DNA of 64,000 bases from Steroidobacteraceae bacterium (GCA_035501795.1 DATJVL010000017.1:3750-67749), one strand, 5' to 3'. Positions 6,456 to 58,266 are shown, numbered from the stretch's first letter. The notes: a model not told the origin generated them from the letters alone. Program-made: numbers and translations.

Positions 6456-7547
6456 TTGGGGAAGATCCTCGGCCGTTACATTCTGCGCGAGGTGGTGCTC
6501 GCCTGGCTGCTCGTGACCGGTGTGCTGCTGGTCATCCTGCTCGCCTACCAGGTGGTCGGCGTGCTCGAGCGCGCCGCCGCCAACCAGTTCCCGCCGGGCG
6601 TGGTGCTGCAGCTGATCTGGCTCGGCGCCCTGCAGTACCTGTCGATCCTGCTGCCCGTCGGGCTGCTGCTCGGCGTGGTGCTCGCCTTCGGCCGGCTCTA
6701 TGCCGACAGCGAGATGGCCGCGGCGCTCGCCTGCGGCGCCGGCCCGGCTTACATCTACTTCCCGGTGGTGGGCCTGGCGCTGTTGGTCGCCACCGCGCTC
6801 GCCTGGCTGACGCTGCTGTTTGCGCCGCAGGCCACCGAGCAGGCGCTGGCGCTGCGTCGCGAAGCGGTGCGTGCCGGGCAGTTCGCCCCGCTGGTGGCGG
6901 GCAAGTTCCGCAGCTTCGTCGGTGGCACGGCGGTGGTGTACGCGCAGGAGGTGAGCGCGGACGGCACGCTGCGCGATGTGTTCGTCGAGCGCAGCCGCGG
7001 CCCTCTGATACAGGTGGCGCTGGCGGACCGCGCGCGCCACAGCGTCACGGCGGACGGCCAGACGCACATCCTGACCCTCTACGACGGCGAGCGCTTCGAG
7101 GGCGTGCCGGGGAGCGCCGAGTTCCGCATCGTGCGCTTCGCCGAGCACGTGGTGCCGGTGCAGCTGCCGAGCGGCCATGACGAGATCCGCGACCTGGAGG
7201 CGCGCCCGAGCGCGCTGCTGGCGCGCTCGCGCGAGCCGGAGCAGCGCGCCGAGCTGCAGTGGCGCATCGCGACCCCGCTCATGTGCCTGGTGCTGGCGCT
7301 GATCGCCGTGCCGCTGGCACGGCTGCGCCCGCGCCAGGGACGCTACGCCCGCGTCTGGGTGGCACTGCTGATCTTCCTGCTCTACTCGCAGCTGATCTCG
7401 GTGGGTAAGGTCATGATCGCGCGCGGCCGGGCGCCGCCGCTGCTCGGGCTGTGGTGGACCCACGCGATCGTGGTGGCGTTCGCGCTGTTGGTGCTGTTCA
7501 CCCCCACGCTGCGTACGCGGCTGCGCTACCGGCGGCAGGTTGCATGA
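6456..7547 (+). CDS. lptF: LPS export ABC transporter permease LptF
   Basis: The product is a polytopic permease, divergent from pepA as in enterobacteria. The family-like N-terminus GKILGRYILREVVLAWLL begins at in-frame TTG 6456. The 35 upstream codons of track ORF 6351 are Arg/Cys-rich and unlikely to be coding. The stop overlaps the lptG start (ATGA at 7544-7547). Confidence 0.85.
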   Translation: MGKILGRYILREVVLAWLLVTGVLLVILLAYQVVGVLERAAANQFPPGVVLQLIWLGALQYLSILLPVGLLLGVVLAFGRLYADSEMAAALACGAGPAYIYFPVVGLALLVATALAWLTLLFAPQATEQALALRREAVRAGQFAPLVAGKFRSFVGGTAVVYAQEVSADGTLRDVFVERSRGPLIQVALADRARHSVTADGQTHILTLYDGERFEGVPGSAEFRIVRFAEHVVPVQLPSGHDEIRDLEARPSALLARSREPEQRAELQWRIATPLMCLVLALIAVPLARLRPRQGRYARVWVALLIFLLYSQLISVGKVMIARGRAPPLLGLWWTHAIVVAFALLVLFTPTLRTRLRYRRQVA

Positions 7548-8608
7548 GCATCCTCGACCGCTACATCGTGCGCACCATCCTCGGCTCGGTGCTGCTGATC
7601 GCGGGCGTGCTGCTGACCCTCGGCGCATTGCTCACCTTCATCGGCGAGCAGAATGACATCGGCAGCGGCGGCTACACCGCCTTCGATGCGCTGTGGTTCA
7701 CGGCGCTGCGCCTGCCGGCCTTCGCCTTCGACCTGCTGCCGATCACGGCGCTCATGGGGGCGCTCGTCGGGCTCGGCTCCCTGGCACGCGGCAGCGAGAT
7801 CACGGTGATACGCGCCACCGGCATCTCGGTCGCACACCTGGCCGGCATCTGCCTGATCGCCGGCCTGACCCTGGTCGGCACCGGGGTCGTGTTGGGTGAG
7901 TTCCTCGGCCCGACGCTGCAGCAGACGGCGCGCGAGCAGAAGGTGTTCCGGCGCTTCAATTCCGTGAACACCGCCGGCGGCGGCGCCTGGGTGCGCGACG
8001 GCAACCTGATCCTGCACGCCGCCGGCCAGTCGGGCCAGAGCCAGTTCGGCGGCATGCAGACCTTCGAGCTCTCACCCGAGCACCGCCTGCTCGCGCTCGG
8101 GCAGGCGCAGCACGCGATCGCGGGCACCAAGGGCACCTGGCTCCTCAGCAACTACAGCGAGTCGCGCTTCGAGGACGACCAGGTGCGCCGCGCCGGCCCG
8201 ACGCAGCGCGTGCTCGAATCGCACGTAACCGCGGCCTTCCTCGGGCTGGCGATCCAGAACCCCGAGCAGCTCACCAACCGCATGCTGTGGAAGCTGATCA
8301 GCTACTACCGCACCAACGGCCTCGATGACCGCGAGTTCGTGTTCGCCTTCTGGTCGCGCATCGCCCGCACCGTGGCGATCGCCTTCACGGTGCTGCTCGC
8401 CATCCCGTTCGTGCTCGGCTCGCTGCGCTCGGCCGGCACCGGCACGCGCATGCTGATGGGGCTGGTGCTCGGCATCGGCTTCTTCCTGCTGCAGCGGCTG
8501 ATCGAGAGCGGCACGATCGTCTTCAACCTCAACCCGATCGTGCTCGCGTGGCTGCCGACGGCGCTGCTGGCGGTGGTGACGGTGGCGCTCCTGGCGCGGG
8601 CGCGCTGA
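7544..8608 (+). CDS. lptG: LPS export ABC transporter permease LptG
   Basis: The N-terminus MSILDRYIVRTILGSVLL is typical of LptG. The product is a permease with a large periplasmic loop. The track ORF (7451) is an upstream extension inside lptF. Confidence 0.9.
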   Translation: MSILDRYIVRTILGSVLLIAGVLLTLGALLTFIGEQNDIGSGGYTAFDALWFTALRLPAFAFDLLPITALMGALVGLGSLARGSEITVIRATGISVAHLAGICLIAGLTLVGTGVVLGEFLGPTLQQTAREQKVFRRFNSVNTAGGGAWVRDGNLILHAAGQSGQSQFGGMQTFELSPEHRLLALGQAQHAIAGTKGTWLLSNYSESRFEDDQVRRAGPTQRVLESHVTAAFLGLAIQNPEQLTNRMLWKLISYYRTNGLDDREFVFAFWSRIARTVAIAFTVLLAIPFVLGSLRSAGTGTRMLMGLVLGIGFFLLQRLIESGTIVFNLNPIVLAWLPTALLAVVTVALLARAR

Positions 8609-8620
8609 GGGCGCGGGTCC

Positions 8621-9031
8621 TCAGCTGCCGCCGGCCGCGCGTGGCCACTGCGGCAGGTCATCGCCGATGTGCACCCAGGGGAGCTTGTCCGCCACCCACA
8701 CGTGCATCTGCGGCGTGAGCGCCCTGGGGTCATCGAGCGTGCCCAGCGTCACGTCGATCTCGGTGGGGCGCTTGTCGTTGCGATAGGTGAGCGAGCTGCC
8801 GCAGGCGGCGCAGAAGCCGCGCACCACCGGCGCCGAGGAGCGGAACTCGGCGAGCCGGCCGTGGGTGATGGCGAAGCGTGTGCGCTCGAAGGTCCCCCAC
8901 GGCACGCTCGGCGAGCCGGCCGCACGGCGGCAGCTGTCGCAGTGGCAGTAACACAGGTTGGTGGCCGTGCCGGTGGCGCGATAGCGCACCGCCCCGCACA
9001 GACAACCACCCGTGTAGACCGCCTCACTCAC
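8621..9031 (-). CDS. GFA family protein (glutathione-dependent formaldehyde-activating / CENP-V fold)
   Basis: The 136-aa product has GGCLCGAVRY...CHCDSCRR...FCAACGS, the Zn-binding Cys pattern of the GFA family. Confidence 0.85.
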   Translation of the reverse strand: MSEAVYTGGCLCGAVRYRATGTATNLCYCHCDSCRRAAGSPSVPWGTFERTRFAITHGRLAEFRSSAPVVRGFCAACGSSLTYRNDKRPTEIDVTLGTLDDPRALTPQMHVWVADKLPWVHIGDDLPQWPRAAGGS

Positions 9032-9113
9032 CCCGCTAACTTAGCACTCGTTGCCGTGCCGCTGCATTTCGGGGAACATCGCGAGCCCTTGCCGTGCGTT
9101 GAGGGGGTCAAGA

Positions 9114-10997
9114 ATGAGAGTCGCAGTCGCCGGCGCGCTGCTGGTGCTCGCCGTTGCCGGTTCCGTGGTGCAGGCGGCGGACATGACGGTGCGCGTGGAT
9201 GCCCGCGAGGTGGCCCGCAAGCGCATCCACACCGAACTCGAGCTGGCGGTCAGCCCCGGAGCGCTGACGCTGGTGTTCCCCAAGTGGATCCCGGGCGAGC
9301 ACGGCCCGAGCGGACCGCTCAACACGCTGGTCGGGCTCAGCATCCGCGCCGCGGGCGCGCCGCTCACCTGGCAGCGCGACCCCAGGGACATGTTCGCGCT
9401 GCACCTCACCGTGCCGCCCGGGGTGCGCCGACTGCAGATCGGGCTCGACTCCGGGCTGCCGCTCGAGGGCGGGGAGTTCACCGCCGGCCCGACCAGCAGC
9501 GCGCGGCTCGCGGTGCTCTCCTGGAACGAGTACGTGCTGCTGCCCAAGGGGCGCGACGCGGCGACCCTGAGTGTGGTGGCGAGCGTGCTCGCCCCGCCGC
9601 AGTGGCAGCTGGCCTGCGCGCTGCAGCTGGCGGCGCCGCAGGCCGACGGCAGCGTGCAGCTGGAGCCGACCAACCTCGCGCAGCTGATCGATTCCCCGCT
9701 GCAGCTCGGGCAGTTCACGCAGCGCATTTCGCTGCCAGGCTCCGCGCCGCTCGCGCAGCTGCCGCACAGCATCGCACTGGCGGCCGACAGCGCCGCCGCG
9801 CTGCAGGTGCCGGAGGACTTCGCCGCCGGCTACGGCCGCCTGGTGCAGCAGGCCGGGGTGCTGTTCGGCACGCGCCTGTACCGTCACTACACCTGGCTCC
9901 TGACGCTCTCCGACCACGTGGCCCACTTCGGTCTCGAGCACCACGAATCCAGCGACGACCGGGTCGATGAGAACTCCCTCGCCGATGCGCCGCTGCGCGA
10001 GGAGCTCGCGGAGCTGCTGGCGCACGAGTACGTGCACAGCTGGAACGGCAAGTACCGCCGTCCGGCGGGGCTCCTCAGCCCGGACTACCAGCAGCCGATG
10101 GACGGCTCGCTGCTGTGGGTGTACGAGGGCATGACGCAGTTCTGGGGCACGGTGCTGCCGGTGCGCGCCGGCCTCATGAGCCCGGAGACCTACCGCGAGA
10201 TGCTGGCGAGCCTCGCCAGCTCCTTCAGCCTCGAGAGCGGCAACCGCTGGCGGCCGCTGGCCGACACGGCCGTGGCGGCGCAGCTGCTGACCGAGGCGCC
10301 GGCCGCCTGGTCGAGCAGCCGCCGCGACCTGGATTACTACGAGGCCTCGGAGTTCCTGTGGCTGAACGTGGACAGCGAGCTGCGCCGCCGCAGCGCCGGG
10401 CGCATCTCGCTCGATGACTACGTGCGCCGCTTCTACGCCGGCACGGGTGGCGCCCCCGCCCTTAAGCCCTACGTCGAGCAGGACATCTACGCGACGCTGA
10501 ACGGCATCGTCCCGGCGGACTGGCGCACGCTCATCCACCGTCACCTCGACTCACTCGGCCCCGAGGTGCTGCTCGAGGCGCTGCGCGGCAGCGGCTGGCA
10601 GCTCAGCTACTCGGCACAGAAGAACTCCTACCTCGAGACACAGCAGCGGCGGCGCAAGGACACCGACCGCCAGGCCTCACTCGGGCTGCTGCTCGATGAC
10701 AAGGCCATCGTGGTGGAGACCATCGAGGGCGGCGCGGCGGCGAAGGCCGGCGTCGGCCCGGGCATGCAGCTGGTTGCCGTCAACGGTCGCAAGTTCTCCG
10801 CCGAGGTGCTCGATGCGGCAATCCTGGCCGCGCAGGCGAGCCGCCAGCCGCTTACGCTGCTGCTCGAGAGCGGCGACTATTACCAGATGCTGAGCGTGCC
10901 GTACTTCGACGGGCCGCGCTGGCCGCACCTGACCCGCATCGAGGCGCAACCGGACCTGCTGACACCGGTGGTGGCGAGCCGCAACGCGGCCAACTGA
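9114..10997 (+). CDS. M61 family (glycyl aminopeptidase-like) metallopeptidase with C-terminal PDZ domain
   Basis: The signal peptide MRVAVAGALLVLAVAGSVVQA starts at ATG 9114, preceded by GAGGGGG. The product has FPKWIPGEHGPSGP, an HExxH site (HEYVHSWNGKYRRP) and a PDZ-like segment (IVVETIEGGAAAKAGVGPGMQLVAVNGRKF). Confidence 0.85.
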   Translation: MRVAVAGALLVLAVAGSVVQAADMTVRVDAREVARKRIHTELELAVSPGALTLVFPKWIPGEHGPSGPLNTLVGLSIRAAGAPLTWQRDPRDMFALHLTVPPGVRRLQIGLDSGLPLEGGEFTAGPTSSARLAVLSWNEYVLLPKGRDAATLSVVASVLAPPQWQLACALQLAAPQADGSVQLEPTNLAQLIDSPLQLGQFTQRISLPGSAPLAQLPHSIALAADSAAALQVPEDFAAGYGRLVQQAGVLFGTRLYRHYTWLLTLSDHVAHFGLEHHESSDDRVDENSLADAPLREELAELLAHEYVHSWNGKYRRPAGLLSPDYQQPMDGSLLWVYEGMTQFWGTVLPVRAGLMSPETYREMLASLASSFSLESGNRWRPLADTAVAAQLLTEAPAAWSSSRRDLDYYEASEFLWLNVDSELRRRSAGRISLDDYVRRFYAGTGGAPALKPYVEQDIYATLNGIVPADWRTLIHRHLDSLGPEVLLEALRGSGWQLSYSAQKNSYLETQQRRRKDTDRQASLGLLLDDKAIVVETIEGGAAAKAGVGPGMQLVAVNGRKFSAEVLDAAILAAQASRQPLTLLLESGDYYQMLSVPYFDGPRWPHLTRIEAQPDLLTPVVASRNAAN

Positions 10998-52086: not shown

Positions 52087-52112
52087 CACGGGCGGGACGA
52101 GGGAGCCGCACC

Positions 52113-52502
52113 ATGGCCTACGTCACGGTAATCAACGAGCACGGGCACCTGCAGCAGATCGTCTCGGGCCATCACCATCTGACGGCCGACGAGCCGGTGA
52201 GCGGCGGCGGCAGCGACGCCGGCTTCGCCGCGCGCGAGCTGCTGCTCGCCAGCTTGGGTGCCTGCACGGCGGTGGCCTGCCGGCGCCATGCCGCGCACAG
52301 CAACTGGAACGTGGGCAAGATCACCGTCGGGGTGCGCTGGTCGCGCGATGCCGCCGGCCATGAGCACATCGAGCGGCGCATCTCCTTCGCGCGCCTGCTG
52401 AGCGCGCAGCAGAAGAGCGAGATGCTGCAGGTGGCCGAGTCCTCACCGATCGCGACCGTGCTGGCCACCGCGCTCAGCATCCAGTCGAGCATCCCCGACT
52501 AA
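52113..52502 (+). CDS. OsmC family protein
   Basis: The 129-aa product starts at ATG 52113 (MAYVTVINEHG). It reads ...ARELLLASLGACTAV.... Confidence 0.82.
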   Translation: MAYVTVINEHGHLQQIVSGHHHLTADEPVSGGGSDAGFAARELLLASLGACTAVACRRHAAHSNWNVGKITVGVRWSRDAAGHEHIERRISFARLLSAQQKSEMLQVAESSPIATVLATALSIQSSIPD

Positions 52503-52509
52503 GCGCGGC

Positions 52510-54564
52510 TCACTTGATGCGCTGCGCACCGATGGCAAGATCGGTGCGTTCGCGGGTGCTCACCTGCACCTCGGTGCGTCCGCCGTTGCCGAGTACCCAG
52601 GGCAGCGGCAGGTTGTCGGCCTGCACCGTAATCACATGGCGGCCGGCGACCACGGCCGGGAAGTCGAAGCGCCCGTTGGCATCGGTGCGCACCGAGAAGC
52701 GCCCGTCGAGGATCACCGTGACGTTGGCCGCGCCGCTCTCGCCGGCGTCGTAGCGGCCGTTCTCGTTGGCGTCCAGGTAGATGATGCCGCCGAGCTCGCC
52801 CGAGCCCGCGCCGGCGACTCCGCCGAGGGGCACGAAGTGCCCGCCGCGTGCCTGCTGGTAGCGCAGCGTGAGGAAGAAGCCGCTCTGCGCCTGCGACTCC
52901 TGCGGGCTCGGCACCGGGGGGGTCAGGGGCGAGGTCACCACCAGCGGCGTCCAGGCGCCGACGCGGCTCTCGTAGAAGCTGAACAGCAGCGCCCAGGAGC
53001 GCGCGATCTGGTAGTCGACCGTGATGTCGGCCGTGGTGGTGGGCGCCGCGCGTCCCTGCACCGCAGCGGCCCACTGCACGCTGCCGTCGATCGACAGCCG
53101 CGCGGTGAGGTTGCCACCGCCGTAGGCGGCGAGACGCACCACGGTGCTGTCCTCGGCGGGCAGGCCTGGCGCCAGGGCGCTGTGCACGCGATCCACCGCG
53201 GCGCTGGTCGCCAGGCGGGCGCCGGTCGCCATGTTCCAGTTCTGCTGCAGCGTTAGCGAGGAGTCCTGCGTGAGCTCATCGGTCGCGTACCCCACCTGCA
53301 GGCGGCCGAGGCCGTAGCCATTCACCTGGTCGAGGTAGCCCTCGAGCGACCAGGAGGTATTGCGGCTGCCATCGCGCGCCAGCAGCACGTTGGCGATGCC
53401 GCCCACGCCGGTATCGCGCGCGAGCTGGTAGCGCGCATCGCCGTTGAGGAAGGTACTGTCGACGCCGTTGCCCGACACTGACAGTACCTCGTCGACGCCC
53501 GCATCCGCGGTCCAGCGCCGGCTCTGGTAGCCGACGCGGTAGTACCCGCCCTGTACGTCGCTGGTGATCAGCTGATTGCCCCAGGCCAGGTGCGGGTCGA
53601 TGTGAAAGGCCCCGAAGGACTGGGTGATGTGTCCGGAAGCGTGGGTGGCGTCAGCCCAGGCACCGAAGGCGTTGCCGTTGCCATCGAGCGTGCCGTCGAT
53701 GAAATTCATCTGCGCATGCGTGCTGCCATCCTGCCACGCGGCGCTCAGCAGCCCGGTGTTGGAGGAGATGCGCTGCTCGGCCACCTCCGGCGGCAGCAGC
53801 GTGTAGCCGGGGGGCTGGTAGTAGATGTTGGCGTCGTGCGCTCCGGCGAACTCCCCGCCGATGCTCCAGTGCTCGGCGGGTGAATACTGCGCCCCGAGGC
53901 TCGCAGTCGAGCCGCCCAGGGTGTCGAAGGTGGGGACCTTGATGCCACCGTAGATGCCGGGCTCGCCGCCGCCGGCCACCAGCTGTACGCCGGAGGGCCC
54001 GCGCCACTCGGTCTCCGCACCCAGCATGGTGCCGGAGGCGAGCACGAAGCGCGGCTGGCTGCGCGCCAGCTCGATCAGCGGGGTGTTCAGGTCGCCGAGC
54101 GCGTTGTCGGCCTGCCAGCCGCCGTCGAAGGGCATGCCGCGCTGGTGCAGCACGAAGGAGCCGTGTGAGTTACCCGCGCTCAAGCGCTCGTCATCGCCGC
54201 CCAGGCGCACCGCAGCGTCGGCCGACCAGGAACCCCAGCGGGCCGTTTCCCACTGCGCATCCATCACCACGCCGTCCTCGTGCAGGCTCGGCGCGGCGTT
54301 CGGGCCCTCCTGCGAGAGCACGCTGACCACGCCGTCGAGGCGCAGCGCCCGTGCCAGGCCGCCGCTGTCGGCGCTGCCAAAGAGCTCGCCGCTCGAGACG
54401 TCGGGCGCGAGCGCGCCGCCGTTGAGCAGGCGGTCCTCGTAGGCGGGCGGCGGGCCGGTGGCGGGCGCATCCTGCGCCGGCGCGGGTGGCCCGGTAAGCG
54501 CAGCGACCGCGAGCACGCACAGGCACGCCACCCGGTGAAGGGCGTGTGCTGCGCGCGCCTTCAT
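52510..54564 (-). CDS. large outer-membrane protein with C-terminal CarboxypepD_reg/SdrD-B-like beta-sandwich (usher-position gene of fibre operon)
   Basis: The 684-aa product has a signal peptide ending APAQ and about 530 aa of Gly/aromatic-rich alternating strands. The last ~95 aa read GGIIYLDANENGRYDAGESGAANVTVILDGRFSVRTDANGRFDFPAVVAGRHVITV. It overlaps the chaperone-like gene by 4 nt. That it is a CDS is secure, but its function is inferred. Confidence 0.75.
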   Translation of the reverse strand: MKARAAHALHRVACLCVLAVAALTGPPAPAQDAPATGPPPAYEDRLLNGGALAPDVSSGELFGSADSGGLARALRLDGVVSVLSQEGPNAAPSLHEDGVVMDAQWETARWGSWSADAAVRLGGDDERLSAGNSHGSFVLHQRGMPFDGGWQADNALGDLNTPLIELARSQPRFVLASGTMLGAETEWRGPSGVQLVAGGGEPGIYGGIKVPTFDTLGGSTASLGAQYSPAEHWSIGGEFAGAHDANIYYQPPGYTLLPPEVAEQRISSNTGLLSAAWQDGSTHAQMNFIDGTLDGNGNAFGAWADATHASGHITQSFGAFHIDPHLAWGNQLITSDVQGGYYRVGYQSRRWTADAGVDEVLSVSGNGVDSTFLNGDARYQLARDTGVGGIANVLLARDGSRNTSWSLEGYLDQVNGYGLGRLQVGYATDELTQDSSLTLQQNWNMATGARLATSAAVDRVHSALAPGLPAEDSTVVRLAAYGGGNLTARLSIDGSVQWAAAVQGRAAPTTTADITVDYQIARSWALLFSFYESRVGAWTPLVVTSPLTPPVPSPQESQAQSGFFLTLRYQQARGGHFVPLGGVAGAGSGELGGIIYLDANENGRYDAGESGAANVTVILDGRFSVRTDANGRFDFPAVVAGRHVITVQADNLPLPWVLGNGGRTEVQVSTRERTDLAIGAQRIK

Positions 54565-55355
54565 TTGAAGTGCTCGTCGAGGTCAGCGTGCTGGTCGGCC
54601 CACTCGAGCGTGCCGCGCACGTTCACCGGGAAGGCGAGTGTCGGCTGCTTCTTGTCCTCGGTGGAGGGCGTGAGGAACACCGTGCGCACCTCGCCGGGCA
54701 GGATCGGGAAGTCGGACGGCGTGAAGTCGTAGCTGCGCCCGCTGGCGTCCTTGCCGGTGAGGAACCCGCTGAGGCGCGTGTGCGCGTTGCCGGCGTTGTG
54801 CACGCGCAGCGCCGGCACACGCTGGCCGTTCACCGTCAGCACCTCCGGCCCGAACATCTCGATCTGCGCCGCGGCATCGCCCACCGTCACGTAGACGATC
54901 ACGGCGATGCGTCCGACGATCGGCAGCTGCACCGCCCCGGTCGTGGCCAGCGTGGGCTCGTCAGCCTCGACCATGAGCGCAAAGCGGCACTCGCCCGCGG
55001 GCGCTTCCGGCGGGATCTGCACTTCGAAGCGGTAGCGGATGGTGGCGCCGGCGGGGAGGCTGACCAGCGGGCGCTCGATCGCGACCCAGGGGCGGCAGCT
55101 GTCCGGCTGCAGCTCATCGTGGAAGACCACGCTGTAGTCGCTGCCGAGCGTGAAGTCGGCGCTGTGCACGCGCAGGCGGCTGGGCACATTCGCACCGTTG
55201 GTGATCTCGATCACCTGGCGCAGCTTCGCCCCGGGCTTGCCGCTGAGCTCGAAGCGCGGCGGCGATACCAGGGCCGCGAACCCCTGCGCGCGCAGCGCGC
55301 CCGCGCCGCTGACGGACAGCAGCCCCAGGATGACAGTGAACATTAGGCGTCGCAC
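54561..55355 (-). CDS. PapD-like periplasmic fimbrial chaperone (putative)
   Basis: The 264-aa product has a signal peptide, and its mature length fits two Ig-like domains. The mature N-terminus is FAALVSPPRFEL...VIEITNGAN, with Arg at about position 9, like the chaperone F1 strand. An alternating hydrophobic strand (VGRIAVIVYVTV) resembles the G1 donor strand. The second domain reads LRVHNAGNAHTRLSG. Confidence 0.6.
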   Translation of the reverse strand: MRRLMFTVILGLLSVSGAGALRAQGFAALVSPPRFELSGKPGAKLRQVIEITNGANVPSRLRVHSADFTLGSDYSVVFHDELQPDSCRPWVAIERPLVSLPAGATIRYRFEVQIPPEAPAGECRFALMVEADEPTLATTGAVQLPIVGRIAVIVYVTVGDAAAQIEMFGPEVLTVNGQRVPALRVHNAGNAHTRLSGFLTGKDASGRSYDFTPSDFPILPGEVRTVFLTPSTEDKKQPTLAFPVNVRGTLEWADQHADLDEHFK

Positions 55356-55358
55356 GGA

Positions 55359-55823
55359 TCAGTCCTCGTCGATCTCGAAGCGGAAGTTGACCGGGTAGCT
55401 AGCGAGCATGCGTCGGCCGTCGACGGTGACCGTCAGCTGCACGACGTCCTCGATGAAGGGGGTCGTGATCGGGCCCGAGTAGACCAGCGCCCGCGTGCCG
55501 GGCAGCAGCTGCCCGGGCAGCAGCCGGCCCTGCGTGGTCCAGGCAGCCTGCAACGCGCCAGGCTGCTGCGCCGGCAGCACCATGTAGATGCGGCCGTTGT
55601 GCTTGAGCCAGGGGGAGACGTTCAGGCGCACGCGCAGCTGCAGCGTGCCGACCATCTGCGTAGCGTGCGGCCCGCGCGGCTGTGCCTGCTGCCAGCGCAT
55701 GGCGACGGCGGCGTTGTAAGGCAGCGTGCCCGAGTCGTCGACGACTGCCGTCTTGGCGGCGTGCGCGGCGGAGCCGAGGGCGAGCCAGATTATGCAGTAT
55801 GCGAGGGTGTGAAGCGGGCGCAC
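55359..55823 (-). CDS. small secreted protein of unknown function (fibre operon)
   Basis: The 154-aa product has the signal peptide MRPLHTLAYCIIWLALGSAAHA and is beta-rich. It ends 3 nt before the chaperone-like gene. Confidence 0.7.
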   Translation of the reverse strand: MRPLHTLAYCIIWLALGSAAHAAKTAVVDDSGTLPYNAAVAMRWQQAQPRGPHATQMVGTLQLRVRLNVSPWLKHNGRIYMVLPAQQPGALQAAWTTQGRLLPGQLLPGTRALVYSGPITTPFIEDVVQLTVTVDGRRMLASYPVNFRFEIDED

Positions 55824-55846
55824 GGCTTGCCTTCCGTTGGCGGGCG

Positions 55847-56509
55847 TCAGGGCGCGGTGACCGTGTAGAGCACGCGGCCCGTGTAGGTGCCCGCGGCCGG
55901 AACGACGGTGTTCTTGTACGAGAAGGTCCAGCAGCTCTCGGCCCAGGTGTTCTGGCCGATGCTGCCGACATTGATGCTGGTGCCGGAGAAACTGCCGGCC
56001 GGGAAAGGCTGCGCGCCGGTATCGCCGTTGCCGGAGCTGGTCCAGCTGATCTGGGAGAACGGCAGCGTGTCGCCCGCGGTATCCACGAGCGAGGCCGGCA
56101 CGGTGGCGATCACCGAGACGCTGCCGGAGCCGTTGCCGGTGGTGCGGTAGAAGCCGCCGATGTAGAGCTGCTGGGGCAGGTTGCAGAAGGCGAAGCCGTC
56201 CCAGAAGCTGAGGGACTGGCTGCTGTCGGTGGTCATCGCCTGCGCGGTGCCGTTGCCGACGCTGGCGGCCGCGACACTGACACTCACCTTGTTGATCGTG
56301 GTGTTGTTGGCGGGGTTGCCGGTCGGCTGGCCGTTGTTCTTGATGGGCGTGTAGTTGCCGCCGGTGAAAGTGCCGTTACCGATCTGCAGGTAGATGGTCT
56401 TGGGTGAGGCGGCCGTGAGCGTCGCGGTGAAGGCGAACGCGCCGCCACCGACTGCAAAGCCACCGCACGCCAGTGCCACGGCGGCACCTGCGCTCCTTCG
56501 GGTGTTCAC
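55847..56509 (-). CDS. pilin-like secreted subunit B (paralogue of subunit A)
   Basis: The gene starts at GTG and has a signal peptide ending GAFA. The mature protein is Thr/Gly/Asn/Ser-rich with two Cys (FAFCNL, AESCWTF). The C-terminus is VVPAAGTYTGRVLYTVTAP. Confidence 0.7.
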   Translation of the reverse strand: MNTRRSAGAAVALACGGFAVGGGAFAFTATLTAASPKTIYLQIGNGTFTGGNYTPIKNNGQPTGNPANNTTINKVSVSVAAASVGNGTAQAMTTDSSQSLSFWDGFAFCNLPQQLYIGGFYRTTGNGSGSVSVIATVPASLVDTAGDTLPFSQISWTSSGNGDTGAQPFPAGSFSGTSINVGSIGQNTWAESCWTFSYKNTVVPAAGTYTGRVLYTVTAP

Positions 56510-56520
56510 GGGGGATTCAG

Positions 56521-56556
56521 GCCCCCGGGGCGACGCTGCGCGCCGCCCCGGGGGGC
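56521..56556 (-). terminator. strong GC hairpin between the two subunit genes (attenuator / mRNA-stabilising stem-loop candidate)
   Basis: GCCCCCGGGGCG (56521-56532) pairs with CGCCCCGGGGGGC (56544-56556), giving a 12-bp stem with one bulge. It lies in the 79-nt gap after the first subunit gene. No U-tract follows. Confidence 0.35.
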
Positions 56557-56588
56557 ATCCTGCACCGGTTACTCGAGGTGCGCGGCCG

Positions 56589-57227
56589 TTACGGCACCGA
56601 GGCGGTGTAGGTCACGCGCCCCGCGCCCACGTTAGTCGCGCCACCACCACCGTAGGTGCCCGAGGGCGGCACGGTGGTGTTGAGGTAGGTGTAGGCCCAC
56701 TTGGCGTCCTGCTGCACGATCTTGCCCACGGCGGTGAGCGTGCTGCTCGTCGTGGCGCCGTCGGCCAGCGCCGGAGCCGCCAGCACGGTCGCAGTCGTGT
56801 TGGCAGTGGCGGTGGTCTTGATCTGCGCGTAGCTGATCGTGTCACCCGCGCCGTTGTTCAGCGGCCCGGTGGTGGTCGAGGACAGCGTGACGTTGCCGTT
56901 GTTGGCGACCACGACCGCGGTCTCCGTGCCGGTACCCAGATCGCCGCCGGTGCCGTTGAGCGCCGTGCCGTTGCCGACCTGCGCCGAGGTCGGCGCCCAG
57001 GTGATCTGGTCGACCGTGGCCAGGGTGGCGAAGCCGCCCGCCGCCGTACCGGTGCCGGTGCCGACGCGCAGGAACAGGAACTTCGGGATGGTGATCTGGA
57101 AGTCCACGTGCGCGGTAGCCGTGAGCGCCCCGGCGCCGGTCTGAAAGTTCGATTCGGCCGTAGCGAGCATCGGCGCAGCGAGGGCCGCGGCGGCGAGCAC
57201 GCCTTTAACGAAGGATGAAGTCCGCAT
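56589..57227 (-). CDS. pilin-like secreted subunit A (first gene, candidate major subunit)
   Basis: The 212-aa product has the signal peptide MRTSSFVKGVLAAAALAAPMLATA and an AAGGTAGGA RBS. The mature protein is Thr/Gly/Ala-rich with no Cys. An alternating N-terminal strand reads ALTATAHVDFQITIPKFLFLRV. The C-terminus is TVPPSGTYGGGGATNVGAGRVTYTASVP. Confidence 0.72.
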   Translation of the reverse strand: MRTSSFVKGVLAAAALAAPMLATAESNFQTGAGALTATAHVDFQITIPKFLFLRVGTGTGTAAGGFATLATVDQITWAPTSAQVGNGTALNGTGGDLGTGTETAVVVANNGNVTLSSTTTGPLNNGAGDTISYAQIKTTATANTTATVLAAPALADGATTSSTLTAVGKIVQQDAKWAYTYLNTTVPPSGTYGGGGATNVGAGRVTYTASVP

Positions 57228-57450
57228 GATGAATGATTCCTACCTTGAGAGAGGGATCCGGTGCTGGCCGGCAGTGTAGGGAGTGCGTTTGGGCCTCATC
57301 CGTGCTTATGTCACGCTTCTGTGCGCCGCCGTGGGACTCCGTCCACGCCCGGCGCGGTGCTGCGATTTGCTTCACCGTTCGGCCAGGCCGGAAACTGTGA
57401 CGCGGCACACAACCGGGTGGTGCTGGTGACTGCGGTGTTGGGAGTCAGAA

Positions 57451-58266
57451 ATGAGTGATCCCGTCGTATTCAAGGAGCGTTACGGGCCGACGGCGCTGGT
57501 GCTCGGTGGCTCGGAGGGCATCGGCCGCGAGTTCGCCGAAGAACTCGCGACGCGCGGGCTCGACCTGTTGCTGGTGGCGCGCAGCCCGGACGCGCTGGCG
57601 CAGGCCGCCACACAGATCCAGGCGCGGCACGGCGTGCGCGTCGGCACGCGCGCGCATGACCTGGGGGCGGCCGGCGGGGAGCGACTCGCGCACGAGCTGC
57701 TCGCCTCGCACGACATCGGCCTGCTCATCTGCAATGCCGGCGCCACGCACGGCGTCGGGCGCTTCCTCGATGAGCCGCTGGAGAAGGCGTCGCGCCTCGT
57801 GAGCCTCAACTGCCAGGTGCCGCTCGCCTTCGCGCACGCCGCGCTCGCGCGCCGGCGCGGGCGTGGTGCCGGCGTGGTGGTGGTGTCATCGATGTCGGCG
57901 CTGGCCGGCAGCGGCCTGATCGCCGCCTATGCCGCCGCCAAGGCTTTTCAGATTGCGCTCTGCGAGGGGCTGCACTGGGAGTTGCGGGGCGCGGGGCTGG
58001 ATGTGCTGTGCGCGGTGGCCGGCCTGACCGACACGCCGGCGATGCGGCGCTCGGGCCTGTCCTTCGCCGCCGCGGCGGAACGGGGCTACGCGCCGATGAG
58101 CGCCGCGCAGGTGGCGCGCGGTGCGCTCGCGCAGCTGGGACGCACGCCGGTCTGGTACGCGGTGGGCGAGGAGACCGTGGCCAGCCTGCGCGCCATGCCA
58201 CGCGAGGAGCTCACCGCGGCGATGAGCGCGGCCACCGCCGCCATGTACGGCGTCAGCCTCGCGTAG
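57451..58266 (+). CDS. SDR family oxidoreductase
   Basis: The product has VLGGSEGIGREFA (TGxxxGxG-like) and the catalytic YAAAKAF (YxxxK). Confidence 0.9.
   Translation: MSDPVVFKERYGPTALVLGGSEGIGREFAEELATRGLDLLLVARSPDALAQAATQIQARHGVRVGTRAHDLGAAGGERLAHELLASHDIGLLICNAGATHGVGRFLDEPLEKASRLVSLNCQVPLAFAHAALARRRGRGAGVVVVSSMSALAGSGLIAAYAAAKAFQIALCEGLHWELRGAGLDVLCAVAGLTDTPAMRRSGLSFAAAAERGYAPMSAAQVARGALAQLGRTPVWYAVGEETVASLRAMPREELTAAMSAATAAMYGVSLA

Follow-up and report, generated by a model that had tools for sequence, protein, structure and literature searches.

A five-gene operon on the minus strand of a 64,000-nucleotide stretch of DNA from a Steroidobacteraceae bacterium (Gammaproteobacteria; GCA_035501795.1, DATJVL010000017.1:3750-67749; this whole stretch is called here the window) appears to encode a self-contained envelope pathway. 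The pathway would follow the logic of chaperone-usher systems, using parts that are either different from theirs or unrecognisably related to them. We give this reading a probability of about one in two. That the operon represents an uncharacterised and widespread system, with a chaperone from a different lineage and with a barrel and subunits that belong to no known family, is well founded; its function is a proposal. From first to last, the genes are:

56589-57227, minus strand: SubA, 212 amino acids (aa), open reading frame (ORF), first gene of the operon
55847-56509, minus strand: SubB, 220 aa, ORF, second gene
55359-55823, minus strand: p154, 154 aa, ORF, third gene
54561-55355, minus strand: WxLIP-like protein, putative chaperone, 264 aa, ORF, fourth gene
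52510-54564, minus strand: outer-membrane protein (OMP), 684 aa, ORF, fifth gene

The spacing along the operon is 79, 23, 3 and -4 nucleotides, and each of the five products has a signal-peptide-like N-terminus. A first-pass annotation, made by a model from the window alone, had placed the five genes at these coordinates, with these gaps and this overlap, and had read them as subunits, then an immunoglobulin (Ig)-like periplasmic protein, then an outer-membrane barrel. Both the coordinates and the layout hold up. It had also left the set outside the named fimbrial families. The searches agree: none of the Pfam families PapD_N, PapD_C, Usher, PapC_N/C, Fimbrial, SCPU and DUF4402 matches any of the five proteins, nor does any NCBIfam family. 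Their sole Pfam match is a domain of the SdrD_B/CarboxypepD_reg type at the C-terminus of the OMP.

Co-conservation of the five genes was examined in a locus scan with the 264-aa protein, which used one genome per GTDB species and gave 428 loci, the best 80 of which were analysed. The order of the five genes is co-linear in all 80 related loci, to the limits of the contigs, while the flanking genes of the window recur in merely 3 to 26 of them. Thus, the five genes are real and form one module. The p154 gene is kept in 80 of 80 loci, and an orthologue of SubA is found wherever the contig extends to its position. Subunit genes come in one to three copies per locus (two in 44 loci and three in 30), SubA being the one duplicated, in 30 of 79 related loci. 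The labels of these best 80 of 428 loci are Steroidobacteraceae, Steroidobacterales, Nevskiaceae, Gammaproteobacteria or Proteobacteria, all of them metagenome-assembled genomes, and the Steroidobacteraceae relatives come mainly from soil and peat metagenomes.

The family is large. Related loci occur in at least 428 species-level genomes, and 2,842 homologues of the 264-aa protein were found in a collection of 5.8 billion proteins. None of these homologues carries a Pfam domain; most are annotated "hypothetical protein", with a few JGI records reading "fimbrial chaperone protein" or "PapD". In the Betaproteobacteria, Usitatibacter has a relative that is 49% identical and is annotated "hypothetical protein". 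An exhaustive profile search with the 264-aa family gave 2,526 clusters at 50% identity (E<=0.001), a count of about 2,500 made with the chaperone only, so that not every cluster belongs to this type of operon.

By sequence comparison, the 264-aa protein is a homologue of the Gram-positive WxL-interacting proteins (WxLIP; DUF916 plus DUF3324) that has no membrane anchor. Three results lead to this assignment. First, hhalign aligned the 264-aa family with seven WxLIPs at 96.7% (E 3.6e-10), over 222 columns that cover both domains. Second, a profile of 42 full-length family members, a diverse set having 25-50% identity, matched EfmWxLIP1 in the PDB (9i25_C, 9i1y_A) at E 1.7e-4. Third, 18 of these 42 members gave weak matches to WxLIP_PGBD (DUF916), the best at 3.1e-5 and all under the Pfam gathering threshold. 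The seven WxLIPs were authentic ones; annotated plasmids of Enterococcus, Melissococcus, Lactococcus and Lactiplantibacillus supplied them, along with ten small WxL proteins. The WxLIP structure was reached only by the profile of diverse members; PDB searches with profiles of close homologues returned nothing, and those with the single sequences of the 264-aa protein, the OMP and SubA returned nothing meaningful.

Membership of the PapD family by sequence was considered as well, and rejected. PapD_N and PapD_C match none of the 42 diverse members, nor the window protein at E<=1; hhalign against FimC of E. coli gives 0.9%; and the family profiles reach no PapD-type chain in the PDB at E<=10.

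The fold is another matter. The AlphaFold2 (AF2) model of the 264-aa protein, built from a 30-sequence alignment, has a predicted local distance difference score (pLDDT) of 69 and a predicted template-modelling score (pTM) of 0.66, and comprises two beta-sandwich (Ig-like) domains. Foldseek against the PDB puts CsuC at the top (3.6e-7), followed by CfaA, EcpB, PapD, Caf1M, FaeE and FimC. These matches to the chaperones of chaperone-usher systems span E values from 3.6e-7 to 1e-4, and the recently solved WxLIP from E. faecium is interleaved among them at 1.2e-6. Sequence identity in these matches is 9-15%, with template-modelling scores (TM-scores) of 0.4-0.5. The model thereby supports a PapD-like two-domain Ig fold. 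The first-pass annotation had called the protein PapD-type, which stands for the predicted fold, but not for the family, where the lineage is that of WxLIP.

It had also picked out two motifs, ...VSPPRFEL...ITN near the N-terminus and VGRIAVIVYVTV; both are present and conserved. The second is the strand in which a long beta-hairpin of the model, residues 121-158, terminates. Among 30 homologues, R34, G148, R149, I150, I153, V154 and Y155 are invariant, as is the cysteine pair C87/C123. The protein ends ...EWADQHADLDEHFK, where a hydrophobic segment is absent, and hence it has no C-terminal transmembrane (TM) helix. Because of the signal peptide, the cysteine pair and the missing TM helix, the protein should be soluble and periplasmic. 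WxLIPs themselves are built from DUF916 (PGBD), DUF3324 (HBD) and a TM helix, and AlphaFold2 predicts that their long hairpin turns into a strand that fills the gap of a WxL beta-sandwich (PMC10599100). Of the WxL sequences known, over 91% come from Firmicutes (PMC9772566).

The proteins of the first two genes had been described as paralogous signal-peptide proteins. Both parts of that description stand, though the paralogy is detectable by BLASTP over the C-terminal ~100 residues only (31% identity, E 2e-10). SubA is rich in T, A and G and has a variable middle region between conserved ends, ATAHVDF.IVIPK.LYLRVGTG at the N-terminus and RVTYTA.P at the C-terminus. SubB is far more conserved than SubA and has a cysteine pair, C109/C193. 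Throughout both families the last residue, P212, is invariant, and the chain ends ...Y-T-x-x-x-P-COOH. The strand-like N-terminal segments of the subunits are conserved too; ATAHVDFQITIP is an example.

Sequence and profile searches of the PDB with the subunits gave no match. As classical pilins they were rejected at the level of sequence: Fimbrial (PF00419), SCPU (PF05229) and DUF4402 match none of 46 subunits at E<=10 and none of six subunits from divergent loci at E<=1, and hhalign against E. coli FimA/I/F/G gives 0.7-1.6%. The earlier statement that these proteins are unlike type-1/P or SCPU pilins is thus borne out. The E. coli FimC, FimD and FimA/I/F/G sequences were taken from one locus (L081); archaic SCPU pilins, DUF4402 and CsuD-type ushers were compared through Pfam alone.

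The subunits were compared with WxL proteins by Pfam for each member, and by hhalign with 10 and 12 WxL sequences in local and global alignment, against a reversed-profile null. The WxL domain PF13731 matches none of the 46 plus 6 subunits. The hhalign values are 0.2-8%, against 0.1-0.4% for the null and 1-1.6% for the Fim control, from profiles that are shallow (10-12 sequences for WxL, 4 for Fim). The C-terminal motif of the subunits, Y-x-x-x-[VL]-x-Y-x-[VL]-x-x-P, resembles WxL motif 2 (Y-x-x-x-L-x-W-x-L-x-x-x-P) over a short stretch only. The similarity being significant in neither Pfam nor hhalign, we do not claim the subunits as WxL domains; a WxL ancestry is an open lead.

The 154-aa protein has no family match in Pfam or NCBIfam, and matches the subunit profile weakly (7% over 94 columns; null 0.1%). 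From its position, and from the clear paralogy seen in divergent loci described below, it is probably a diverged paralogue of the subunits. Its earlier description as a secreted protein fits its signal-peptide-like N-terminus, and it is probably not unrelated to SubA and SubB. Here, SubA is the candidate for the major subunit, SubB for a minor or adaptor subunit, and p154 for a tip or terminal subunit.

The fifth gene product has two recognisable parts:

52855-54357, minus strand: beta-barrel part of the OMP, residues ~70-570, from AF2 secondary structure
52513-52797, minus strand: C-terminal Ig-like domain of the OMP, SdrD_B/CarboxypepD_reg type, residues ~590-684, from Pfam

The AF2 model of the OMP (pLDDT 58.7, pTM 0.50; low-to-moderate confidence) consists of a signal peptide, residues 24-69 that are unmodelled yet conserved, ~26 beta-strands within residues 70-570 and, after a linker, the Ig-like domain at the C-terminus. 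As had been noticed in the first pass, the protein ends in a CarboxypepD_reg-like sandwich: Pfam finds SdrD_B (E 2.2e-7) and a CarboxypepD_reg-type domain (E 1.1e-5) at residues 590-650, and SdrD_B is present in 32 of 32 family members. The model supports a large beta-barrel. Foldseek returns only generic large-barrel matches, namely MtrB (6r2q_B, 5e-5), porins, the PapC pore (5.8e-4), FimD (7e-4) and LptD, with TM-scores of 0.2-0.4. An usher by sequence was rejected: Usher-family Pfam entries match none of the 32 members (E<=10) and none of three divergent OMPs, and hhalign against FimD gives 0.1%. Profile and structure searches, suggested as a check on this protein, thus returned a large barrel, but not the signature of an ordinary usher. 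That the OMP acts as an usher is unproven: its low-confidence model fits none of MtrB, porins, ushers and LptD well, and none of them much better than the others, so that a kinship with ushers may still exist at the level of fold.

The 26-strand sheaths MtrB and PioB deserve a comment here. MtrB is the top Foldseek match of the OMP (6r2q_B, E 5e-5), and the predicted number of strands is similar. However, the TM-score is only ~0.3, no member of the OMP family matches the Pfam entry MtrB_PioB, and the operon lacks the multihaem cytochrome that partners such sheaths.

Clusters of invariant residues occur in two short segments of the OMP, both lying outside its predicted strands. Residues 24-69, which were not modelled by AF2, include invariant D44, G50, L52, P54, D55, S57 and G59. 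Residues 157-180 contain a short helix between strands, with an invariant cluster of D153, G157, R172, F173 and L175. A chaperone-docking peptide and a pore gate are possible roles for these segments.

More distant loci, whose chaperones share 25-29% identity with the 264-aa protein of the window, repeat the arrangement:

L091: chaperone P0362; upstream small proteins of 185 aa and 151 aa; OMP of 645 aa, barrel plus SdrD_B
L094: chaperone P0384; upstream small proteins of 167 aa and 150 aa; OMP of 721 aa, barrel plus SdrD_B
L096/L097: chaperone P0364; upstream small proteins of 179 aa and 163 aa; OMP of 903 aa, barrel plus SdrD_B plus OmpA

The core that recurs in them is a subunit, a protein of ~150 aa, a WxLIP-like protein and a barrel with SdrD_B. 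Against the family profiles, their chaperones score 100% and their first subunits 64-98.6% (SubA/SubB); their OMPs score 96%, in a match confined to the last strands and the Ig domain. Pilin, PapD and usher Pfam families match no component of these three loci. The ~150-aa proteins of L094 and L096 are clearly paralogous to the first subunit (E 4e-22 and 1e-15), and N-terminal alignments show this second subunit to lack 10-15 residues directly after the signal peptide. In chaperone-usher pili, it is the tip subunit that has no N-terminal donor strand. By that analogy, the shortening is suggestive of a tip-like role.

The L096 locus (GCA_040960095.1, JBFOMS010001582.1, positions 6851-9562) encodes the 903-aa OMP, in which an OmpA peptidoglycan-binding domain follows the SdrD_B domains. 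Such a barrel-Ig-OmpA fusion would tether an assembly pore to the cell wall. Because this divergent OMP runs into a peptidoglycan-binding domain, the C-terminal Ig domain of the window OMP would by analogy be periplasmic, as the C-terminal domains of ushers are.

The content, order and co-conservation of the genes, the predicted fold of the chaperone and its WxLIP homology, the barrel-plus-Ig architecture of the OMP and the missing pilin and usher signatures are results. From them we infer a pathway in which the 264-aa protein would act as a chaperone by complementing strands, and the subunits would cross the barrel and polymerise. SubA, SubB and p154 would be exported by Sec to the periplasm. 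There, the soluble WxLIP-type 264-aa protein would capture them, probably filling the beta-sandwich of each subunit with the strand of its conserved hairpin (...GRIAVIVYV...). Insertion of this kind is predicted for WxLIP and WxL proteins and has been shown for PapD-type chaperones. The subunits would then be delivered to the dedicated ~26-strand barrel, where the periplasmic C-terminal Ig domain would serve as a docking site or plug, and would pass through the barrel to be displayed on the surface. The displayed form would most likely be a short polymer or surface fibre in which the variable SubA predominates and the conserved SubB and p154 are minor components (adaptor or tip).

A stronger form of this proposal would make the operon a new class of donor-strand fibre assembly in diderms, combining a chaperone of the WxLIP lineage, a ~26-strand "usher" unrelated to PapC/FimD, and a new family of pilins. 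We regard this as possible, though less likely than not. A parallel exists in the Pam pili of the candidate phyla radiation (CPR) bacteria, a donor-strand pilus that has membrane-anchored two-domain PapD-like chaperones and Ig-like pilins invisible to sequence search, and that indicates that non-canonical donor-strand systems with PapD-like chaperones do occur outside the classical families (bioRxiv 10.64898/2026.03.03.709456). Compared by description only, both systems are non-canonical and have PapD-like two-domain chaperones proposed for donor-strand assembly. Unlike the window protein, however, the Pam chaperones are membrane-anchored, and the Pam system has neither an outer membrane nor an usher.

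Several observations weigh against the chaperone-usher-like pathway. The OMP model is of low-to-moderate confidence, its matches to MtrB and porins are as good as those to ushers, and neither an usher-type folded N-terminal domain nor a plug-sized insert is evident in it. The p154 of the window is not demonstrable as a subunit paralogue; BLASTP finds no similarity to SubA or SubB, and the profile match is weak. The characterised relatives of the chaperone, the Gram-positive WxLIPs, are thought to form complexes bound to the wall, not fibres. Further, the close relatives of the operon are all from uncultured organisms, known as metagenome-assembled genomes.

In the best of the competing explanations, the operon is a diderm version of the WxL/Csc complex, whose Gram-positive gene clusters comprise a WxLIP, small and large WxL proteins and an LPXTG protein. 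Here, the small proteins would stay unpolymerised in a non-filamentous surface complex, such as an adhesive or polysaccharide-binding platform, with the WxLIP-like protein as a stable structural partner and the barrel as an anchor or exporter. Homology to WxLIP, over both Ig-like domains, is the only significant sequence relationship that any component has. As in WxL/Csc clusters, the WxLIP-like protein adjoins at least two small secreted beta-rich proteins, and the resemblance of their C-terminal motif to the second WxL motif, together with a weak subunit-WxL score (4-8%) that exceeds the reversed null (0.1-0.4%), points the same way. So does an Arthrobacter plasmid (see below), where a monoderm joins a TM-anchored WxLIP-like protein with WxL-like neighbours.

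Much about the operon nevertheless departs from these clusters. Its host is a diderm proteobacterium, whereas WxL hosts are monoderms in which attachment is to peptidoglycan. The WxLIP-like protein has lost the C-terminal TM anchor, its partners are not detectably WxL domains (the homology is not significant), and the operon has no LPXTG or sortase component. It does have a dedicated large outer-membrane barrel, of which Gram-positive clusters have none, and ~26 strands exceed the needs of an anchor. The shortened second subunit of the divergent loci also fits ordered polymerisation better. On balance, we consider a WxL/Csc-like complex rather unlikely.

Quite improbable, in our estimate, is that the operon is an extremely diverged true member of the chaperone-usher family (classical, alternate or archaic), with an OMP that is a shortened usher, homologous to PapC/CsuD, and subunits that derive from SCPU or Fimbrial pilins by divergence. 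The archaic (sigma) pili, Csu of Acinetobacter baumannii and CupE of Pseudomonas aeruginosa, offer the closest comparison for such a view. The window operon has the gene order of csu and cupE, from small subunits to periplasmic chaperone to outer-membrane pore, and shares with them multiple subunit paralogues that include a conserved minor one. The structure search places CsuC first for the 264-aa protein, and PapC and FimD within the top five for the barrel. Against this, sequence signals of PapD_N/C, Usher, PapC_N/C, Fimbrial and SCPU appear in 0 of 42 chaperones, 32 OMPs and 52 subunits at permissive thresholds. The hhalign comparisons with FimC, FimD and the Fim pilins stay at 0.1-1.6%, and in the PDB the profile of the chaperone finds WxLIP and no chain of PapD type. 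The OMP has 684 aa where archaic ushers have more than 800, ~26 strands where ushers have 24, and a single SdrD_B-type C-terminal Ig domain where they have two C-terminal domains; it has no recognisable usher N-terminal domain or plug, and no gene for a tip adhesin follows it.

Least probable of all is a system without surface display, in which an outer-membrane channel, helped by accessory or binding proteins in the periplasm, would import or export a substrate such as a polymer. The barrel does match MtrB, porins and LptD, as well as TonB-dependent transporters, to about the same degree as ushers, and CarboxypepD_reg-type domains are common in outer-membrane transport proteins. But no enzyme is encoded in the operon, nor any partner of the ABC transporter, TonB or cytochrome kind, and the three Sec-exported beta-rich proteins with strictly conserved C-termini, together with a protein of PapD/WxLIP fold, are typical of strand complementation between proteins.

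Around the operon, the window shows the following:

52092-52502, plus strand: OsmC, convergent with the operon
57228-57450, no strand: intergenic region between the operon and the divergent SDR, presumed from its position to hold the operon promoter
57451-58266, plus strand: SDR, divergent from the operon

Beyond OsmC lie a cyclopropane-fatty-acid-synthase-like methyltransferase and an FAD oxidoreductase; beyond the SDR lie a glyoxalase-family protein and Usp. The genes that bracket the operon are unrelated housekeeping genes, and the convergent OsmC and divergent SDR are as the first-pass annotation had them. A promoter scan upstream of the operon found no match to the sigma-70 consensus.

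Other relatives of the WxLIP-like protein were met at greater distance. A plasmid search with the 264-aa protein gave three distant matches only (Deinococcus, Arthrobacter and Streptomyces). On the Arthrobacter sp. plasmid pA40H1 (NZ_MH067970.1, 4160-6736), a WxLIP-like protein carries a TM helix at its C-terminus and has a small protein on each side. The small proteins end ...YTATLTHSVL and ...YSAIITHSVL, one of them matches the WxL profile at 88.7%, and all three proteins are annotated "hypothetical protein". This suggests that WxL/WxLIP clusters extend far outside Firmicutes, in a form whose second WxL motif has degenerated. On a plasmid of Deinococcus sp. NW-56 (NZ_CP026517.1, 4902-10475), genes encode proteins of 292 aa, 298 aa (WxLIP-like), 190 aa and 1,013 aa. 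The 298-aa protein scores 99.1% against the 264-aa family of the window, and the 1,013-aa protein has two SdrD_B/CarboxypepD_reg domains. The locus may be a Deinococcus version of the window system.

The ends of some of these proteins differ. In L094 (2804-3784), the chaperone-like protein, of 326 aa, has a basic tail of ~65 residues rich in Lys, Ser, Thr and Pro at the place where Gram-positive WxLIPs have their TM helix. The tail of the Deinococcus WxLIP-like protein is rich in Pro, Gly and Ser. Both tails may be alternative tethers. In a further locus (L093, 2266-4711, Logan ERR14788036), a 263-aa member of the chaperone family (P0328), 31% identical to the 264-aa protein, has a quite different setting: it lies directly upstream of GspF- and GspG-like type II secretion genes, and neither barrel nor subunit genes adjoin it. 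Last, an unannotated homologue that is 63% identical to WxLIP1 of E. faecium was found on CP069367.1 (101986-102474), a plasmid labelled Klebsiella pneumoniae. The presence there of a surface-protein gene of Enterococcus type points to a wrong label or a chimera in the record, or else to an unusual transfer.

In the textbook view, Gram-negative bacteria assemble fibres by the chaperone-usher route, whose pili are detected via a handful of Pfam signatures. Because none of these signatures is present in the window operon, a system with chaperone-usher-like logic is missed by current annotation, which labels its parts "hypothetical" or "SdrD B-like domain". The WxLIP family, in turn, has so far been treated as a speciality of Firmicutes, its role unclear. 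The literature searched describes neither this operon nor any WxLIP-like protein from Gram-negative bacteria, so that the operon gives the first indication found of soluble periplasmic relatives of WxLIP paired with an outer-membrane barrel. If the proposed pathway is true, both its usher-like pore and its pilin family would be new, and it would provide a Gram-negative setting in which to probe strand insertion by WxLIP-type proteins. Were the operon in fact a new donor-strand class, the surface complexes of WxL/Csc clusters would be linked with the chaperone-usher pili of Gram-negative bacteria, and WxLIP proteins in general would be strand-donating assembly chaperones.

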